Shown piece by piece: positions 3,613 to 64,000 of a stretch of DNA of 64,000 nucleotides. The translations under genes were made by a program, and so were the position numbers. The stretch lies in UHGV virus genome UHGV-0370399. One strand, given 5' to 3'. Source of the DNA: a virus. The notes under the pieces were generated by a model, which had not been told where the DNA came from, made no database searches, and was given only the letters and a program-made list of their open reading frames with translations. Within the stretch, counting starts at the first letter, position 1. Every line of letters begins with the position of its first letter.

Positions 3613-4094
3613 TGGTTAAAAGGGTTATTCACCCCGCGAGAGCAAAATTAGTCGGGGCTATGAAGAACTTGCAAACGGCTAATGCTCAAGTTGGGTATTT
3701 TCAAGAACAAGGTCAACATAGCTCTGGTTTTTCTTATCCTGCTTTAATGTATTTACAAGAAGTTATTGGGGTTCCTTCAGCTTCTGGTAAAGTATATCGT
3801 AGGTTGTTTGAAATCACTATGATGCTAAACAAACAGACCTTGTTAGAGCAGACTAAGAAGAATCTATATAAGCAACTTAGCAGTCTCAACACAGACCCTT
3901 CAAATACCTTAGAAGCATTTGCAAAGAATGCTCAAAAGGCAATTAAAAGAGGTTTTGGTAATTCTGCTATCCTCCCTCCTAACGCACCTTCCACAGTCAA
4001 GAAAAAAGGCTTTAACGCACCTCTTGTTGAGACAGGTGACTTAAGAGATAACCTTGCTTATAAAATTTCTACTAAGAAGGGTATTAAAAAATGA
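3612..4094 (+). CDS. hypothetical head-tail connector protein
   Basis: ATG overlaps the upstream stop (translational coupling); structural module position. Confidence 0.3.
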   Translation: MVKRVIHPARAKLVGAMKNLQTANAQVGYFQEQGQHSSGFSYPALMYLQEVIGVPSASGKVYRRLFEITMMLNKQTLLEQTKKNLYKQLSSLNTDPSNTLEAFAKNAQKAIKRGFGNSAILPPNAPSTVKKKGFNAPLVETGDLRDNLAYKISTKKGIKK

Positions 4095-29450: not shown

Positions 29451-29511
29451 TTTTACTCCCTCTAAAATCATTAACCTCATACATTACTGCAAAAAATTAT
29501 AAAAAGCAAGT

Positions 29512-29540
29512 TGACAATGCACTTGACAAGGTGTTAATCT
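29512..29540 (+). promoter_or_regulatory. sigma70-like promoter in the divergent control region
   Basis: TTGACA, 17 bp spacer, TAATCT; a second TTGACA lies 12 bp downstream. Confidence 0.4.
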
Positions 29541-29645
29541 TTGCGAAGTGGGTTTTTACTTAAAAGGTTACTTAACAGTTTAACTATACAGATACTTTAA
29601 AACTCTTAAAAGATTATTTAATAGCTTTTAAAAAGCTTTAAAGTA

Positions 29646-29664
29646 TAACGTATAGAATACGTTA
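29646..29664. promoter_or_regulatory. perfect 8-3-8 palindrome, operator-like
   Basis: TAACGTAT aga ATACGTTA centred on a TAGAAT -10-like hexamer, 45 bp upstream of the ATG at 29708. Confidence 0.5.
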
Positions 29665-29707
29665 AGATAAAAGATTAAAACTTAATAGTTACTTAAAAGA
29701 GGCTTAC

Positions 29708-30130
29708 ATGCAGAAAATGTTTGTTCACCCAGACATAGCTGACTTTGTTAGAGCTTTGCAGAAGTTGGAAGAACTTGACATTGCTGCTCAACGGGAATAT
29801 GCTCACCATCACAGGAGAATGGTTGATATACAACATGAAATAGAGTTGTCTGAAAACTATGAAGATGACTTAAAATGCTCTGTATTTGAGCATATGAAAG
29901 ATGTTGCTACAGCTAGACGTAAAGCTAAAGACACAGTTGCTTTACTAGATTCTCTTAAAAAGAGGTTGCAAAGTGGTACAGACTTGTGTAATCTAGCGTC
30001 ACTGATTAACGATGTTGAAACTTCTTGGGATAGGCACTATTATCCACGTTCTGAAAAGACACTTGACTTTTCTTCATCAGAAAACTTAAAATGTTCTAGA
30101 AAGAAACTTAACCAACTGAGAGAGAAATAA
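29708..30130 (+). CDS. hypothetical early protein
   Basis: 140 aa ATG-initiated ORF, first gene of the rightward block. Confidence 0.4.
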   Translation: MQKMFVHPDIADFVRALQKLEELDIAAQREYAHHHRRMVDIQHEIELSENYEDDLKCSVFEHMKDVATARRKAKDTVALLDSLKKRLQSGTDLCNLASLINDVETSWDRHYYPRSEKTLDFSSSENLKCSRKKLNQLREK

Positions 30131-52568: not shown

Positions 52569-52584
52569 TAAGTAATTTCTTAAA

Positions 52585-52607
52585 AGGCTGCTTCGGCGGC
52601 CTTTTTT
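52585..52607 (+). terminator. intrinsic terminator with UUCG tetraloop
   Basis: GGCTGC ttcg GCGGCC (one G-U) followed by TTTTTT. Confidence 0.75.
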
Positions 52608-52609
52608 AT

Positions 52610-52637
52610 TTGTATTTTGTGCAGAGTGCTGTATAAT
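52610..52637 (+). promoter_or_regulatory. sigma70-like promoter
   Basis: TTGTAT, 16 bp spacer, consensus TATAAT, 31 bp upstream of the ATG at 52669. Confidence 0.5.
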
Positions 52638-52668
52638 TGTTTTCACGATAAACTAAACAGGAGAACCA

Positions 52669-55737: not shown

Positions 55738-55938
55738 ATGGCTGACTTCTGCAAAGACTGTTCTATCGAAATGTTCGGACGTGATACAGGTGACTTAAAA
55801 GGTCTTATCACTGAAGATGACTTTAAAGCTGGTTATGCAATGCCAGTAATCTGTGAAGGTTGTGGATGTATCTGGGTAGACCACGAAGGGCAACGTGTAA
55901 AGCCTTCAGAAGATAAAGAATCTTGGGAGAGATGTTAA
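55738..55938 (+). CDS. small zinc-ribbon protein
   Basis: CKDCS ... CEGCGC Cys pairs; SD aaggtg. Confidence 0.4.
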   Translation: MADFCKDCSIEMFGRDTGDLKGLITEDDFKAGYAMPVICEGCGCIWVDHEGQRVKPSEDKESWERC

Positions 55939-56724
55939 ATGGGTATTGTAAAAATCATCAATGGCGATATCTTTGCTGCATTTGATAAAGGTAAGTTTGA
56001 CATCATTGGTCATGGTTGTAACTGCATGAACCTAATGGGTGCAGGTATCGCTGACAAGATTTCTAAACTTTACCCAAAAGCATATGAGACCGATACAGAA
56101 GTTTATCTCTATGCAGGTGGTATAGGTCATAAACCCTGTGAGAATTTACTAGGTAATTTCTCTGTAGCACGCTTAAAACAAGGTCGTATAGCTAACCTTT
56201 ACACTCAGCTTAAGACTGGTAAAGATGCCCGATACAGTGCTTTAGAGTCATCTTTGAAGCAACTTAACAGATACTGTGAAGTTAATCAGTTGAAGAAAGT
56301 TGGTTTACCTATGATTGGTGCAGGTATCGGTGGACTTGACCCTCAAGCCGTCACAGTTATCATCAATCAGGTGATGAAGAGTGTAGATGTTTATCTATAT
56401 GTCTATGAAGGAGAGATGTACCACAAGTTACTCTCAGGTTGGAAGAACTACTGTGAACCAGAATACTTTGCAGGTGTAGCAGTGTTCACAGATAACGCAG
56501 TTACCCTCTTCAGACGAAGAAAAGGTAAGATACATCAAAGTAACCCTCCGGTTGAAAAGATGTCTCTGAGTAACGCTCTAGTTACCCACCTGTCGAAGAG
56601 CAATCACAGGATTGCAGTAACATTTGGCAGTGATGCAGATACTTATATCTATGCAAGAACTGATGAGGATATCGAGACAGTTTTCTCTTCACCAGAAGTT
56701 ACCTTCTTAGACGCAAAGAACTAA
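55939..56724 (+). CDS. macro-domain (ADP-ribose binding/processing) protein
   Basis: GDIF...DIIGHGCNCMNLMGAGIA and VGLPMIGAGIGGL parallel the macro-domain VNAAN..L.GGGV and glycine-rich loops. Confidence 0.6.
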   Translation: MGIVKIINGDIFAAFDKGKFDIIGHGCNCMNLMGAGIADKISKLYPKAYETDTEVYLYAGGIGHKPCENLLGNFSVARLKQGRIANLYTQLKTGKDARYSALESSLKQLNRYCEVNQLKKVGLPMIGAGIGGLDPQAVTVIINQVMKSVDVYLYVYEGEMYHKLLSGWKNYCEPEYFAGVAVFTDNAVTLFRRRKGKIHQSNPPVEKMSLSNALVTHLSKSNHRIAVTFGSDADTYIYARTDEDIETVFSSPEVTFLDAKN

Positions 56725-56791
56725 GAAACTCTGTAGGATATTCACAATAGCCTAAGCCTTTCTTATCTGGTAAATTTTTCAGGTAAGGAGG

Positions 56792-56975
56792 GCTTTTTCA
56801 TTTCAGAATTGTGCAGGTAGAGTTCTGTAGAGAAATCTGTAGAGAGAATTTTGAACTCCAAAGAGAAAATTCATTTTCAAACTGTGCAGATAATCTCCAA
56901 AGAGCTTTTTCATTTTCAAAACGTGCAGACCACACTCAGGTCGGGCAAGAAAAATCATTTTAGGATTGTGCAGGT
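56792..56975. repeat. four iteron-like copies of a 20 nt motif
   Basis: tcattt(t)cA(g/a)AAtTGTGCAG at about 56799, 56871, 56911 and 56956; tandem tctgtagaga x2 at 56821-56848. Confidence 0.7.
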
Positions 56976-57000
56976 AGGTTTTTATAGAGAGCCAGACCAA

Positions 57001-57031
57001 ACCCTCTCCCCCTCTTACTCCCCCTCTCCCC
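57001..57031. repeat. polypyrimidine C/T mirror-repeat tract
   Basis: accctctccccctcttactccccctctcccc, pure pyrimidine on the + strand. Confidence 0.7.
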
Positions 57032-57153
57032 AAAAGTCAAGAGAAAAATTTGTAGCGGATTGAAAAATAATTCTTGATTTGTGTTCTGTTTTGTGGTAGT
57101 CGTGTGCGCCCGTTTCATTACAGTTTTGCCAAAAATATTTTTAAAATTTTTTC

Positions 57154-57245
57154 TTGACTCTTTGAACGTGGTTATCTAGTATTTGCATCAACGGGGAGGG
57201 AATGACCTTCCCCACTAAATAAAGTCCTAAACTGGAGATTCAAAA
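57154..57245 (+). promoter_or_regulatory. cassette module A1: promoter, 5' stem-loop and RBS
   Basis: TTGACT-17-TAGTAT, then caacGGGGAGGGaatgaCCTTCCCCactaaataaagtcctaaactGGAGattcaaaaATG. Confidence 0.65.
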
Positions 57246-57629
57246 ATGGCATATCGTGCACCTAAATTCATCAACAAAGACAACTTTCGCAACGCACTGG
57301 AGAAGTCACTTGATGAGAATTTTAAAGGGAATAAAATTGTTGTTCACGCATTCAATTTTAAGTATGATATCAACGGGAATAAAATCAACCACTACACGGC
57401 AACTATGATAGATGGTACGCTTTCAAGCGAAAAAACTATTCTCAATGCACTTGCTGGACGTGGGAAAAACCTGATAAGATGCGATAAGAGACGTTATCAG
57501 GGCGGCGCATATGGTTATGATGATGCTGTCTATCATCTTGAAAATATGGGCTATTCAGTAGAAAAAGTTGGAGCGTCGCAAATCATCGGTAGTGATGGTT
57601 ATGTAACAATCCTCAAAATTAACAAATAA
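57246..57629 (+). CDS. cassette gene 1, hypothetical protein
   Basis: 127 aa; preceded by module A1; last codons (LKINK) lie inside the next module. Confidence 0.5.
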   Translation: MAYRAPKFINKDNFRNALEKSLDENFKGNKIVVHAFNFKYDINGNKINHYTATMIDGTLSSEKTILNALAGRGKNLIRCDKRRYQGGAYGYDDAVYHLENMGYSVEKVGASQIIGSDGYVTILKINK

Positions 57630-57715
57630 AGTACTTTACAAGGGGCTTATAGTTCGATAAAGTAAGCCCCAGATAAAGAGCTTTACCACTAAATCCTAAA
57701 TTGGAGAACTTAAAA
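57630..57715 (+). promoter_or_regulatory. cassette module B1: hairpin overlapping promoter, plus RBS
   Basis: aagtacTTTACA then GGGGCTTA-13 nt-TAAGCCCC hairpin (57642-57670) containing TAAAGT, then agataaagagctttaccactaaatcctaaattGGAGaacttaaaaATG. Confidence 0.6.
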
Positions 57716-58009: not shown

Positions 58010-58094
58010 AGTACTTTACATGGGGTTTAAAAGTTGATATCTTAAGCCCCAGATAAAGAGCTTTACCACTCAATCCTAAACTGGAGATTCAAAA
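58010..58094 (+). promoter_or_regulatory. cassette module B2
   Basis: TTTACA, hairpin GGGGTTTAA ... TTAAGCCCC (58022-58050), conserved RBS segment. Confidence 0.6.
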
Positions 58095-59686: not shown

Positions 59687-59772
59687 AGTACTTTACAAGG
59701 GGCTTATAGTTCGATAAAGTAAGCCCCAGATAAAGAGCTTTACCACTCAATCCTAAATTGGAGAACTTAAAA
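59687..59772 (+). promoter_or_regulatory. cassette module B4 (near-identical to B1)
   Basis: About 86 bp direct repeat of 57630-57715, hairpin 59699-59727. Confidence 0.6.
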
Positions 59773-62981: not shown

Positions 62982-63245
62982 ATGGAAAACGTAGAATTAA
63001 CCACACTTTTACAAATTGCAACCGACAAAGAAAACGTAGCTTTATTTCACCGCATCGAAAGTGATTTGTTCAATGGTGAAATCATCAAAGAGTCTTACGA
63101 GGTTGTTGGATTCAAAGATGGTAAAACATTTGGATTCTTTGACCTCGAAAAAGGCAACGCTGTTACAAAATATGATGTTTTATCTTGTGAGATTCTTACA
63201 AAATACAATGAAAAAAGGCTTGCAACATACGCCAATATGCAGTAA
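62982..63245 (+). CDS. cassette gene 14, hypothetical protein
   Basis: 87 aa; stop TAA coincides with the -10 TAAATT of the next module. Confidence 0.45.
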   Translation: MENVELTTLLQIATDKENVALFHRIESDLFNGEIIKESYEVVGFKDGKTFGFFDLEKGNAVTKYDVLSCEILTKYNEKRLATYANMQ

Positions 63246-63311
63246 ATTACTAATCAACGGGAGGCGATAACCTCCCCACTAAATAAAACCCTTAAACTAG
63301 GAGATTCAAAA
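63220..63311 (+). promoter_or_regulatory. cassette module A7 (stem-loop with compensatory changes)
   Basis: TTGCAA-17-TAAATT; leader hairpin GGGAGG cgataa CCTCCC replaces GGGGAGGG aatga CCTTCCCC while keeping base-pairing. Confidence 0.6.
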
Positions 63312-63725
63312 ATGGCAACTATCCGCGCTACTGTTAACGAGTTCGGTTTTTCCTCTCTGGATGTTAAATTTGACATTGCAGGCACTGATAACGCCTTTGA
63401 AATGGTGAAAGGTCTTATCAGTCAGACCATCAAAGACTATAATCCTTCTGATGAGTTCTGGAAAGAAACAAAACAGGAAGTTCTCAAAGAGGGTTATTCT
63501 TATCACTATTGGGGTGAAAAAATTGTCTCTCTGTACTACGACAAAGAAGGCACTATAGCCTCAGATACCTTTATACAGCCCCTCATAGGGGCTTTTTTAC
63601 GTCTATCCAATCCTTATACAATCCCTTTCCCTCACCTTTCCAGAATCTTATCAGACCTTAAAAGCAATAACTCTATAGTCTACTCTATAACCTCTTATCA
63701 AATCAACTTAAATAAAAGCCAATAA
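63312..63725 (+). CDS. cassette gene 15, hypothetical protein (3' end uncertain)
   Basis: 137 aa ORF after module A7; a terminator-like hairpin lies inside it about 130 nt before the stop. Confidence 0.4.
   Translation: MATIRATVNEFGFSSLDVKFDIAGTDNAFEMVKGLISQTIKDYNPSDEFWKETKQEVLKEGYSYHYWGEKIVSLYYDKEGTIASDTFIQPLIGAFLRLSNPYTIPFPHLSRILSDLKSNNSIVYSITSYQINLNKSQ
63577..63598 (+). terminator. terminator-like hairpin embedded in the last cassette ORF
   Basis: AGCCCCT cat AGGGGCT followed by TTTTT. Confidence 0.5.
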
Positions 63726-63943
63726 CCCCAGAAAGGGGATGGCCCATTTAAACGCTCTATAAAGCTCTATAACAGCCTTATCAACCTAACTTAAGGGATT
63801 GCATTAACCTATCTTAAAAAGCTCTTTACAGGGCTTTATAGAGGCTTAAAAGAATCTTATAAGGGTGTAAGCTTATAGGCTGGTTAGTATCTTGTGAATG
63901 GTTAAACAACCCCCTTGCTAGTCACTAAAAAGCATGTTATAGG

Positions 63944-64000
63944 GGCTATAAAGTTACTTCAAAGTTACGTAAAAAAGGCTATAAAGTTACTTCAAAGTTA
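63944..64000. repeat. tandem 33 bp repeat truncated by the window edge
   Basis: ggctataaagttacttcaaagtta at 63944 and 63977 separated by cgtaaaaaa; CTATAAAG-like motifs also at 63764-63784 and 63834-63845. Confidence 0.7.

Follow-up and report, generated by a model that had tools for sequence, protein, structure and literature searches.

A selected array of direct repeats beside a back-to-back promoter-like block in Felix O1-like phages, and its possible role as a replication origin

What function keeps four copies of one short motif in a stretch of phage DNA that contains no gene? This question is raised by a non-coding gap in the window, i.e. the whole stretch of 64,000 nucleotides of the virus genome UHGV-0370399 that was analysed here and that represents a Felixounavirus genome. 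The gap is 521 bp long, from the stop codon of the macro gene (56724) to the next ATG (57246), and it lies between the terminator of a long early/middle operon and a terminal block (about 6.8 kb) of small promoter-driven early genes. In order, a strong terminator and four repeats are followed by a C-rich pyrimidine tract, two promoter-like elements placed back to back and the first cassette promoter (Table 1). The upstream neighbour of the array is a gene for a macro-domain protein and the downstream neighbours belong to PHROGs of unknown function; the cassette genes of the terminal block are small, have no assigned function and each carry their own sigma70-type promoter. A sequence-only reading had described the gap as free of credible open reading frames and as ending in the first cassette promoter. 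Each frame of the gap indeed has 7-11 stops, and its extent (56725-57153) had to be corrected, since the end given there is that cassette promoter. The gap is a selected, cis-acting DNA element made of two modules, an array of direct bipartite sites and, about 60 bp away, a back-to-back promoter-like block with one arm directed into the array. The array is very probably a protein docking site.

Table 1 Features of the 521-bp gap, with positions in the window.
Feature	Position	Strand	Sequence or organization	Remark
Rho-independent terminator	56754..56800	+		Ends the long rIIA...macro operon; from fold and public annotation
Repeat R1	56793..56819	+	TTTTT-TCATTTC-AGAATT-GTGCAG-GTA	Core invariant in the Felixounavirus and Mooglevirus alignment
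Two copies of TCTGTAGAGA	56824..56845	+	Starts at 56824 and 56836	In the R1-R2 spacer
Repeat R2 with 5' block	56856..56892	+	CTCCAAAGAG-AAAAT-TCATTTT-CAAACT-GTGCAG-ATA	
Repeat R3 with 5' block	56895..56931	+	CTCCAAAGAG-CTTTT-TCATTTT-CAAAAC-GTGCAG-ACC	
Repeat R4	56940..56978	+	GTCGGGCAAG-AAAAA-TCATTTT-AGGATT-GTGCAG-GTAGG	
C-rich polypyrimidine tract	57002..57031	+	29/30 pyrimidines, 21 C	
P(-), promoter-like	57012..57040	-	-35 TTGACT (57040->57035), 17-nt spacer, -10 TAAGAG (57017->57012)	
Most conserved non-repeat block	57032..57102		Inverted repeat CAAAAGTCAAGA-29 nt-TCTTGATTTGTG	
P(+)1, promoter-like	Inside 57032..57102	+	TTGATT (57074-57079)-17-TAGTCG (57097-57102)	
'GC island'	57096..57112	+	GTAGTCGTGTGCGCCCG	-10-like hexamer of P(+)1 and putative transcript start
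P(+)2, first cassette promoter	57154..57182	+	TTGACT-17-TAGTAT	Preceded by an A/T-rich UP-like tract
5' leader of first cassette gene	57193..57245	+	Small hairpin GGGGAGGG...CCTTCCCC, Shine-Dalgarno GGAG	ATG at 57246

The motif of the array, W5-TCATTT(T)-N6-GTGCAG, occurs as four direct copies in the gap, and the four copies described earlier were borne out by exact matches to TCATTTN7GTGCAG at 56798, 56871, 56910 and 56955, all on the plus strand. When one mismatch was allowed, five matches were found in 64 kb against 0.59 expected, a number reached in none of 100 shuffles. No further copy was found in the rest of a near-identical complete genome of about 88 kb, which contains only scattered single sites with one mismatch; the motif is thus confined to one locus in about 88 kb, and the spread through the genome that would have spoken against a local function was not observed. 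Within each site, the two conserved blocks are separated by about one helical turn, a distance that would suit a monomeric protein with contacts in two successive major grooves. Dyad symmetry is absent, as the motif is asymmetric and its partial palindromes are not kept from copy to copy. The shorter repeats of the sequence-only reading were also found, as two copies each of TCTGTAGAGA and CTCCAAAGAG (the latter at 56856 and 56895), neither of which occurs elsewhere in the window. CTCCAAAGAG forms the 5' part of a unit of about 39 nt that contains motif copies 2 and 3, and the TCTGTAGAGA copies are lineage-specific, with a different sequence in Mooglevirus and other alleles. Two ways of accounting for such an array were rejected. 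A CRISPR-like mini-array was dismissed because the only CRISPR-repeat match was a weak one in the macro gene (E 0.38), outside the array, and because the intervals between the 19-nt motif cores (20, 26 and 54 nt here) are conserved among relatives and not variable. A general (middle/late) promoter class was dismissed because the motif is found at one locus and the hexamers after GTGCA are not consistently TAnnnT across copies and lineages.

The array is retained far beyond the closest relatives. The region was not missing from them, as it might have been if it were of no consequence, but was present in 275 related phage records, and in three genera plus a deeper lineage. The motif is kept at three to five copies in Felixounavirus, Mooglevirus, Kolesnikvirus and a more distant contig (L031), with the same orientation in all copies and with copy number and order kept in the three genera and L031. 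The array is retained in its distant carriers even though the identity of the macro protein falls to 40-43% there and the genes downstream are unrelated. The diversity of the motif cores was 0.005, compared with 0.20 in the spacers and, in the adjacent gene, 0.157 at codon position 2 and 0.302 at position 3, figures that carry an ascertainment caveat because many loci were found by means of the motif itself. Across the subfamily, no other non-coding feature of the early region is as well conserved as the array. Constraint is not equal among the copies, and R2 is the least constrained (mutated in L015 and L016, missing in L021 and L037); the 5' block of R4 is near-identical to that of copy 3 in Panisse (GTCTGGCAAGAAAAATCATTTT). 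The site generalised across lineages is (A5 or T5)-TCATTTT-N6-GTGCA(G/T), in which the flank is always A/T but switches between A5 and T5 among copies and lineages, and the repeat spacings (73/39/45, 75/41/45 and 37/37/39 nt; range 37-75) follow no common helical phase. The wider search consisted of a metagenome scan and a two-copy pattern scan of 185,579 species genomes. The former returned the same Ounavirinae arrays and more than 100 chance tandem repeats with no new genomic context, and the latter only unrelated tandem repeats in MAGs. Plasmid sequences gave chance matches only (E >= 0.3) and 5,426 E. coli genomes gave no match, and a host regulatory site or a plasmid iteron family was rejected on this basis. 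By-eye comparison with the consensus sequences of IHF, Fis, CRP, Fur, OmpR/PhoB and ops/RfaH revealed no consistent match; the sole partial match in this comparison was a DnaA box, in Kolesnikvirus and L031 only. A possible DNA-binding role was also considered for the C-terminal extension of the macro protein, which gave no PDB or Pfam match, had low confidence (pLDDT 35) in a single-sequence AlphaFold model and is absent from L031.

On the upstream side, the array adjoins the terminator, whose hairpin (56754-56795) combines a stem of 17 bp with a loop of 8 nt and precedes UUUUUCAUUU, and whose U-tract doubles as the A/T flank of R1. Its stability of -23.6 kcal/mol (z -5.0) was matched by none of 200 shuffles, it is annotated in the wV8 and KhF2 records, and an equivalent hairpin is present in Erwinia phage Panisse. 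Neither this terminator nor the promoter-like block at 57032-57102 had been part of the sequence-only reading. On the downstream side, the tract once described as a pure C/T mirror repeat does exist, but it is interrupted by an A at 57017 and its mirror symmetry is only approximate. Its minus strand reads GGGG-AGA-GGGGG-AGTAAGA-GGGGG-AGA-GGG, the only motif of G-quadruplex type in the window, and no other 31-mer of the window is as rich in C. It is, however, one of two alleles, and unrelated sequence takes its place in about one third of the distinct Felixounavirus sequences. Because it is replaced in this way in many relatives, the tract, which had been taken as part of the element, is not essential, and a G-quadruplex, H-DNA or R-loop role for it was downgraded for the same reason. 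What is preserved in the replacement allele is the distance from R4 to the -35 box, which in both alleles measures 61 nt in most sequences of the Felixounavirus type (exceptions, 51-69 nt). The short GC-rich island reported earlier has a GC content of 71%, but it ties with two other 17-mers of the gap.

P(-) is directed into the repeat array, and its -35 box with a TA-initiated hexamer at 17 nt (TAAGAG, TAATAG, TAGCCT or TAGTCT) is kept in both spacer alleles and thus survives full replacement of the intervening sequence. In Panisse, a minus-strand promoter with 10 of 12 consensus positions is located in the equivalent back-to-back position. The inverted repeat at 57032-57102 amounts to two -35 boxes that face outward and enclose A/T-rich UP-like DNA, and its diversity was 0.094, compared with 0.25 for the cassette promoter. 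In the window, P(-) and P(+)1 both have poor -10 hexamers and fall below the threshold of the promoter scan. The P(+)2 element is also found in Michonne.

Given this anatomy, does the array act as DNA, or through a product? Public records annotate coding sequences here, such as wV8 gp013 on the plus strand and minus-strand open reading frames in Pr103Blw, Michonne and Panisse, and open stretches of 50-80 codons are present. However, these annotations conflict in strand, frame and position, every reading frame contains 5-12 stops, spacings of 37, 41, 43, 73 and 75 nt shift the frame of the motif, indels of 2 nt separate close relatives, and conservation is limited to the motif and follows no frame. 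Small protein-coding genes are therefore almost certainly not the explanation, and coding was rejected on the absence of a conserved frame, the frame-breaking indels and the contradictory annotations. A structured RNA or known RNA family was likewise rejected, as consensus folds reached only -6.0 kcal/mol on the plus strand and -7.8 kcal/mol on the minus strand with negligible covariation terms, and Rfam gave matches only at E 0.38 and 4.6. A non-coding RNA product, namely a minus-strand transcript from P(-) with four CUGCAC-N6-AAAAUGA units, antisense to the 3' end of the macro gene, would agree with a minus-strand promoter-like element kept through sequence replacement, with the strong consensus match in Panisse and with the small minus-strand open reading frames repeatedly annotated here, which would reflect an open stretch and not a gene. 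We nevertheless regard it as improbable, since the minus-strand fold extends over 256 columns with a covariation term of -0.5, Rfam offers no match, the A5/T5 flips of the flank are uncompensated, and the minus strand has no terminator, the hairpin being without a downstream U-tract in that direction. Because no reading frame and no RNA structure is conserved, Rfam, plasmids and E. coli give no match, and the flank flips between A5 and T5, the array appears to act as a set of DNA-level binding sites, and not as a gene or a structured RNA.

What such sites would do is a matter of two main readings, both already named in the sequence-only reading as an iteron-type origin or an array of regulator sites. 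The part common to both is supported, i.e. selected, DNA-level, single-locus direct-repeat sites by promoters. Our best guess puts the origin ahead of a regulatory or insulator array, which is nearly as likely. We tentatively propose that the element may be a transcription-activated, iteron-assisted replication origin, or one origin, of Felix O1-like phages. The repeats would be occupied by a protein of the phage or by one that it recruits from the host, host RNA polymerase would start at the minus-strand promoter and transcribe into the array, and this transcription would open or prime the DNA for a T7-type primase-helicase and family A polymerase. The replisome is of this T7 type, with a family A polymerase and a fused primase-helicase, and precedents for the transcription step would be the lambda ori, the T7 primary origin, T4 oriF/oriG and the ori of lactococcal phage c2. 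Presence at a single locus in about 88 kb fits an origin, not a promoter class. An origin of this kind would be expected to have at least three direct repeats of about 17-24 bp, in one orientation and at a unique locus, and four copies are found here, with three to five in relatives; the conserved geometry and the promoter predicted to fire into the repeats also argue for it. T4 oriE is a precedent of a lytic myovirus origin with short direct repeats, and the T7 primary origin is also located at the inner edge of a terminal early block.

Compared with known origins, the element has features of two types. With iteron origins (the lambda ori with its four O-protein sites; P1, F, R6K and pPS10; T4 oriE) it shares same-orientation sites of about 19-24 bp at one locus, two conserved blocks per site about one helical turn apart, and A/T-rich DNA and promoters alongside, and with the lambda ori also transcription directed into the repeats, which is predicted here. 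Unlike the iterons of plasmids and lambda, which are contiguous at about 22 bp, the array copies are 37-75 bp apart and not regularly phased, the array has no recognisable Rep/O-like initiator gene and no unwinding element that clearly stands out, and it showed no sequence similarity to any plasmid. With transcription-primed origins (the T7 promoters 1.1A/1.1B, the promoter and unwinding element of T4 oriF/oriG, and the non-coding transcript of the c2 ori) it shares a non-coding position on the inner side of a terminal early region, one or more putative promoters directed into a repeat-bearing or structure-prone segment, and a T7-type replisome. Those origins, however, need no repeated protein sites, and here the R-loop-prone tract is only an allele and the promoters are only consensus matches.

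Several observations weigh against an origin. By PHROG/Pfam-style annotation, no initiator or sequence-specific DNA-binding gene was recognisable by the array or in the replication module, and no initiator is named anywhere in the annotated relatives. The G-rich, R-loop-prone tract downstream of the promoter is not conserved within the genus, and the poor -10 hexamers of P(-) and P(+)1 also count against this reading. In duplex stability, the best 40-mer of the gap (57113) belongs to the least stable 0.6% of the window and the best 120-mer only to the least stable 7%. The window reaches its lowest stability at 29,580-29,700, in the DNA that separates the DNA polymerase gene from the primase-helicase operon, and the GC skew changes sign there as well.

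The second main reading, a regulatory or insulator array in which a DNA-binding protein of phage or host on the repeats controls the adjacent promoter block, is possible, if doubtful. Such a protein might shut off or time the cassettes, block the antisense transcript from P(-), or back up the terminator against read-through from the operon. The array sits exactly at the border of two transcription blocks, with R1 overlapping the terminator U-tract, and is coupled, at an R4-to-box distance that is equal in most sequences of two non-homologous alleles, to the promoter-like block with the highest conservation in the gap. Good -35 boxes with poor -10 hexamers, as in P(-) and P(+)1, are often seen in activator-dependent promoters, and the temporal control of Felix O1 is explicitly unexplained (PMC3185647). 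However, the repeats do not overlap any -35 or -10 element: about 60 bp separate the end of R4 from the closest -35 box, and the sites fall at about +30 to +210 relative to P(-), on its downstream side, and at 100-280 bp upstream from P(+)1. The array is built of direct repeats and not of dyads, no regulator gene is recognisable, and no other cassette promoter carries the motif, so that at most one promoter cluster would be controlled. The p4 switch region of phi29 is similar in having multiple A-tract-containing protein sites by a divergent promoter pair in a lytic phage; the p4 sites, in contrast, are inverted repeats overlapping the promoters, whereas the array sites are direct repeats displaced from both promoters.

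Two further readings concern DNA entry and packaging. In the first, which we hold to be very unlikely, the array would serve, as in T5, to stop injection or to anchor the DNA, and would mark the inner limit of a first-entering terminal segment (about 7.6% of the genome). The layout parallels that of the untranslated, repeat-dense, highly conserved region that closes the T5 pre-early block at 7.9% (bioRxiv 10.1101/866236), the array is about 6.7-6.9 kb from the right physical end, and the cassette genes are small, with their own promoters and unassigned functions. In addition, the GTGCAT half of the Kolesnikvirus site reads CTATGCACA / TTATGCACG on the other strand, which agrees with the DnaA box TTWTNCACA at 8 of 9 positions. 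There is a slim chance of two-step DNA entry, in which the right-terminal 6.7 kb or so enters and is expressed first and the array holds the rest outside until an early protein frees it; host takeover would precede the rest of the DNA, and the array might act via a membrane-associated host protein such as DnaA. Against this, neither two-step entry nor entry with the right end first has support in Felix O1-type phages, the minus-strand readings of the window (ACCTGCACA, ATCTGCACA and GTCTGCACG) match TTWTNCACA at only 5-7 of 9 positions, and the T5 repeats have in common with the array only the words TGTGCA and TCATT. Repeat Region 3 of T5, with its injection stop signal, resembles the element in being untranslated, repeat-dense and far better conserved than the flanking genes, and in closing a terminal block of small early genes after terminators. 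The T5 region, however, spans 1.2 kb within a terminal repeat of 10 kb, and it carries paired consensus DnaA boxes as well as large inverted repeats. No such feature was found here: the terminal repeat is about 0.6 kb with the array outside it, and large inverted repeats of the IRC/IRD type (130 bp) are absent. If this reading were true, two-step entry would be a convergent strategy in an unrelated myovirus subfamily and the array would gain a defined role.

In the second, a reading with hardly any probability, the array would be recognised by the terminase (as a pac site) or would delimit the terminal repeat. Single-locus direct-repeat arrays are typical of the sites of terminase small subunits, and in an unrelated podophage contig (L036/L088) a similar word occurs in two tandem 50-mers just upstream of the terminase genes. 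This match is at chance level, however, as the same pattern matched more than 100 unrelated metagenome tandem repeats, and the large terminase gene is about 24 kb away on the circular map. The direct terminal repeat, which was determined as 581 bp in Pr103Blw by PhageTerm (PMC8303462) and as 608 bp in UAB_Phi87 by Bal31 mapping (PMC4837284), begins shortly after the window ends, about 6.8 kb downstream from the array. A genome terminus or pac site was rejected because the mapped terminal repeat begins there.

In the accessible literature, we found no paper describing the array, and no transcriptome, origin-mapping or intergenic-knockout data for the locus. The Felix O1 genome paper reported only direct repeats of at least 24 bp and described no origin (PMC3185647), the wV8 record annotates the repeats DR_1-DR_9 with none at the array, and the PhageMaP library of Bas63 was aimed at genes only. 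In public records, the array is mis-annotated as various tiny genes. Felix O1-type phages, classic phages for the typing of Salmonella, now have uses in biocontrol, in therapy cocktails and in phage engineering (e.g. Bas63), and for these phages the array provides a defined 19-nt bait for finding its putative binding protein. If the array were dispensable, the strong selection on it would still need explaining. If it is an origin or an early-gene switch, genome engineering would have to leave it intact, and its possible uses would include phage-dependent plasmid amplification or the control of early-gene expression.

The 521-bp non-coding gap between the macro-domain gene and the first of the cassettes, the small genes that fill the right end of the genome, contains an ordered array of four direct motif copies (R1-R4), each an exact match to TCATTTN7GTGCAG. 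The sequence-only reading had proposed this array, and all the items that it listed were recovered, with coordinates shifted by 1-3 nt at most (see the table). When one mismatch is allowed, the pattern has 5 matches in 64 kb against 0.59 expected, none of 100 shuffles reaches five, and elsewhere in the window and in the rest of the LMP33 genome (99% identical) only scattered single 1-mismatch sites occur. The short words TCTGTAGAGA and CTCCAAAGAG are found nowhere else in the window, and CTCCAAAGAG is the 5' portion of a ~39-nt unit common to copies 2 and 3. The C/T tract, earlier described as pure, is present but has 29 pyrimidines in 30 positions, the exception being the A at 57017; no other 31-mer of the window is richer in C, and the window has no other G-quadruplex-type motif. 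The GC island is real, though modest. Two features had been missed, namely a very stable terminator, whose U-tract doubles as the A/T flank of copy 1, and a conserved inverted-repeat block.

Features of the gap, its flanking genes and a second intergenic region
Feature	Coordinates	Strand	Properties
Divergent intergenic region	29452-29708		between DNA polymerase gene (minus) and first plus-strand gene of primase-helicase operon; contains CTTAAAAG-type A/T repeats, a 27-nt near-palindrome and tandem TTGACA boxes
Zinc-ribbon-like gene	55738-55938		66-aa protein, CxxC...CxxCxC spacing, PHROG 2210 (unknown function); abuts macro gene on its 5' side
Macro-domain gene	55939-56724	+	Pfam Macro, PHROG 335; directly precedes gap with array
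Terminator	56754-56795		-23.6 kcal/mol, z -5.0
Motif copies 1-4	56798, 56871, 56910, 56955 (starts)	+	TCATTTN7GTGCAG
TCTGTAGAGA x2	56824, 56836		tandem short repeat
CTCCAAAGAG x2	56856, 56895		tandem short repeat
Copy 4-to-box segment	56977-57031		two alleles
C/T tract	57002-57031		
Inverted-repeat block	57032-57102		conserved
Plus-strand promoter-like arm		+	TTGATT-17-TAGTCG; weak -10 in window
Minus-strand promoter-like arm		-	TTGACT-17-TAAGAG; weak -10 in window; points into repeats
GC island	57096-57112		
Cassette promoter	57154-57182		TTGACT-17-TAGTAT

By sequence reading, the block CAAAAGTCAAGA-29 nt-TCTTGATTTGTG represents two outward-facing -35 boxes, both preceded by A/T-rich sequence of the kind also found upstream of the cassette promoter. 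In the Erwinia phage Panisse, an equivalent back-to-back pair gives a 10/12 consensus promoter on each strand. Between copy 4 and the box (the -35 of the minus-strand arm), Felixounavirus has one of two unrelated alleles, the C/T tract or TGTCGCCATTTCTCACAAGGCTACCACATC (variation listed at L014-L017, L024, L025, L028-L030, L034, L039 and L061). With either allele, most Felixounavirus-type sequences have R4 and the box 61 nt apart (range 51-69 nt), and a TA-initiated hexamer (TAAGAG, TAATAG, TAGCCT or TAGTCT) lies 17 nt from the box. Two points speak for a genuine minus-strand arm, the Panisse pair and the -35/-10 geometry that survives allele replacement. At the level of sequence comparison, the alleles also show that the polypyrimidine/G-quadruplex tract is dispensable, and since it can be replaced by an unrelated allele, a mechanism based on H-DNA or an R-loop in the tract is weakened.

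Using sensitive blastn, the gap sequence matches 275 records, and its identity drops to ~74% in Mooglevirus, while alignment to Kolesnikvirus (Erwinia phages) is limited to the part with copies 2-4. The Mooglevirus and Kolesnikvirus loci read have a uniform order of macro gene, terminator, four direct copies, C-rich tract, back-to-back promoters and next gene, and the repeats are spaced at 73/39/45 nt in Felixounavirus, 75/41/45 nt in Mooglevirus and 37/37/39 nt in Kolesnikvirus. In L031, an 88-kb metagenomic contig, five copies, of which four match the search pattern exactly, follow the macro gene. Some phages carry a mutated copy 2 or lack it, and the number of copies in natural arrays is thus 3-5. 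Compared with the macro protein of the window, that of Panisse is 43% identical and that of L031 40%, and the genes downstream of the array are unrelated in both; despite this macro divergence, the motif consensus is the same, (A/T)5-TCATTTT-(C/A)AAWWY-GTGCA-(G/T)R. Pairwise diversity, computed over 30 distinct sequences of Felixounavirus and Mooglevirus, is 0.005 in the motif cores, a conservation somewhat inflated by the many loci found via a two-copy motif pattern. It rises to 0.094 in the inverted-repeat block, 0.157 at macro gene codon position 2, 0.20 in the inter-repeat spacers, 0.25 in the cassette promoter and 0.30 at macro gene codon position 3. The BLAST-derived loci and an unbiased alignment agree with this picture, and the comparison shows that the array is under selection.

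Coding function was ruled out by 5-12 stops in every frame in each lineage; the motif lies in differing frames because the spacings are not multiples of three, and 2-nt indels in the array separate close relatives. The tiny CDSs annotated over the array are almost certainly spurious; those at 56811-57118 and its equivalents (wV8, LMP33, SeKF_63, Pr103Blw, Michonne and Panisse) clash in strand, frame and position. A structured RNA was also ruled out, with consensus folds of -6.0 (plus strand) and -7.8 kcal/mol (minus strand) and negligible covariation over 256 columns of six representatives, and an Rfam search of the gap found no family. The five bases 5' of TCATTTT are always A/T and switch between A5 and T5 among copies and lineages, which fits a DNA-shape need (narrow minor groove or bend) rather than RNA pairing or codons. 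Two invariant motif blocks have centres ~12 bp apart, in a single orientation for all copies, and this geometry suggests a monomer touching two successive major grooves, like iteron-binding initiators and some tandem-binding regulators. Searches of 72,556 plasmids and 5,426 E. coli genomes found no similar array, and pattern scans of species genomes and metagenomes gave only Ounavirinae arrays and chance tandem repeats. An unrelated podophage-like metagenomic contig (L036 = L088; minus strand, ~3880-3990) carries AATCATTTTAACATAGTGCAG within two 50-bp tandem repeats, immediately before the genes for a small HeH-domain protein, a large terminase and a T7-type portal; its resemblance to the search pattern is most likely due to chance.

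By megablast, 56000-58000 matches 237 phage records at 92-96% identity, and Felixounavirus (Felix O1, wV8 and relatives) accounts for nearly all of them. In gene maps of relatives, a single long plus-strand transcription block extends from the primase-helicase region to the right genome end, taking in rIIA/rIIB, the macro gene and finally the cassettes with their individual promoters. The array lies ~7.6% of the genome length inward from that end, and it was ruled out as the genome terminus, as the direct terminal repeat begins just past the window end, ~6.8 kb downstream. This repeat is 581 bp in Pr103Blw by PhageTerm (PMC8303462) and 608 bp in UAB_Phi87 by Bal31 mapping (PMC4837284). The window end (63078-64000) coincides almost exactly with the start of the Pr103Blw repeat, and therefore the whole right-terminal cassette block is inside the window and the repeat itself outside. 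The cassette gaps (57630-57700, 58010-58094, 59690-59757 and others) repeat one another, as do the families DR_1 to DR_9 annotated within the small-gene run of the wV8 record. These gaps contain TTTACA-17-TAnnnT promoter-like sites, and pseudo-peptides (MENLKMAI...) recur when the gaps are translated; some predicted N-termini there are therefore probably promoter/leader sequence. The macro domain is TARG1/OARD1-like (PDB 4j5r, E 9e-6); its ~100-aa C-terminal extension, absent from the L031 homologue, has no Pfam or PDB match, and single-sequence structure prediction was unusable (pLDDT 35). The zinc-ribbon-like gene is not at the equivalent position in Kolesnikvirus or L031. The gap after rIIB (52569-52668) has, in this order, a terminator (GGCTGCTTCGGCGGCC plus T6), the 1-mismatch motif copy TTATTTGTATTTTGTGCAG, positioned behind the terminator as copy 1 is, and the extended -10 TGTATAAT. 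Many loci of Felixounavirus and Mooglevirus likewise have a pattern match on the upstream side of the array, at a distance of 4.2-4.9 kb (6.6 kb at one locus), but the number of such matches is no more than chance predicts.

The function of the array is inferred, and the evidence largely rules out an ncRNA, a coding region or a pac site. The earlier suggestion of an iteron-type origin or an array of regulator sites is partly supported, by oriented single-locus repeats beside promoters, but the spacing is not iteron-like. We tentatively rank a replication origin first, because the oriented repeats occur at a single locus, a promoter-like element points into them, the array is at the inner edge of a terminal early block, and the phage has a T7-type replisome and no mapped origin. 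The T7 primary origin has a corresponding position, and the putative minus-strand promoter would fire into the array, as at lambda ori, the T7 primary origin, T4 oriF/oriG and phage c2 ori. However, no initiator gene is recognisable in annotations of the array neighbourhood or relatives, and the divergent intergenic region at 29452-29708 is a generic alternative candidate that counts against the array as origin. The least stable duplex of the whole window lies there (29,580-29,700; 120-nt energy -126 vs a mean of -154 kcal/mol), and GC skew flips sign at this ~29.6-kb site. A regulatory or insulator array is possible, and almost as likely as an origin; the array sits at a terminator/promoter boundary at a fixed distance from the promoter block, although no motif copy overlaps a promoter and the motif is missing from every other cassette promoter. 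The T5 injection-stop region (L058, AY587007.1 9330-10409) is similarly untranslated, repeat-dense and highly conserved, and closes a terminal block of ~8%. In contrast, T5 has a long terminal repeat, large inverted repeats and paired consensus DnaA boxes, none of which is present here; only Kolesnikvirus copies come close to a DnaA box (8/9). The T5 region has (T)GTGCAAATCCGACA nine times and GCTTTTTAAATGAGAATCATT four times, and only the words TGTGCA and TCATT are common to it and the Felix-type motif.

The array appears to be undescribed in literature and records, because the Felix O1 paper (PMC3185647) lists only repeats of at least 24 bp, the wV8 record draws CDS gp013 across the array with the repeats unmarked, and a comparative Felixounavirus study makes no mention of intergenic or non-coding regions, repeats or an origin of replication. 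Judged by its sequence, the array is familiar in kind, as direct repeats predicted to bind protein beside promoters. It provides a concrete, conserved handle on two questions in a practically important phage group, the replication origin and the temporal control of transcription.
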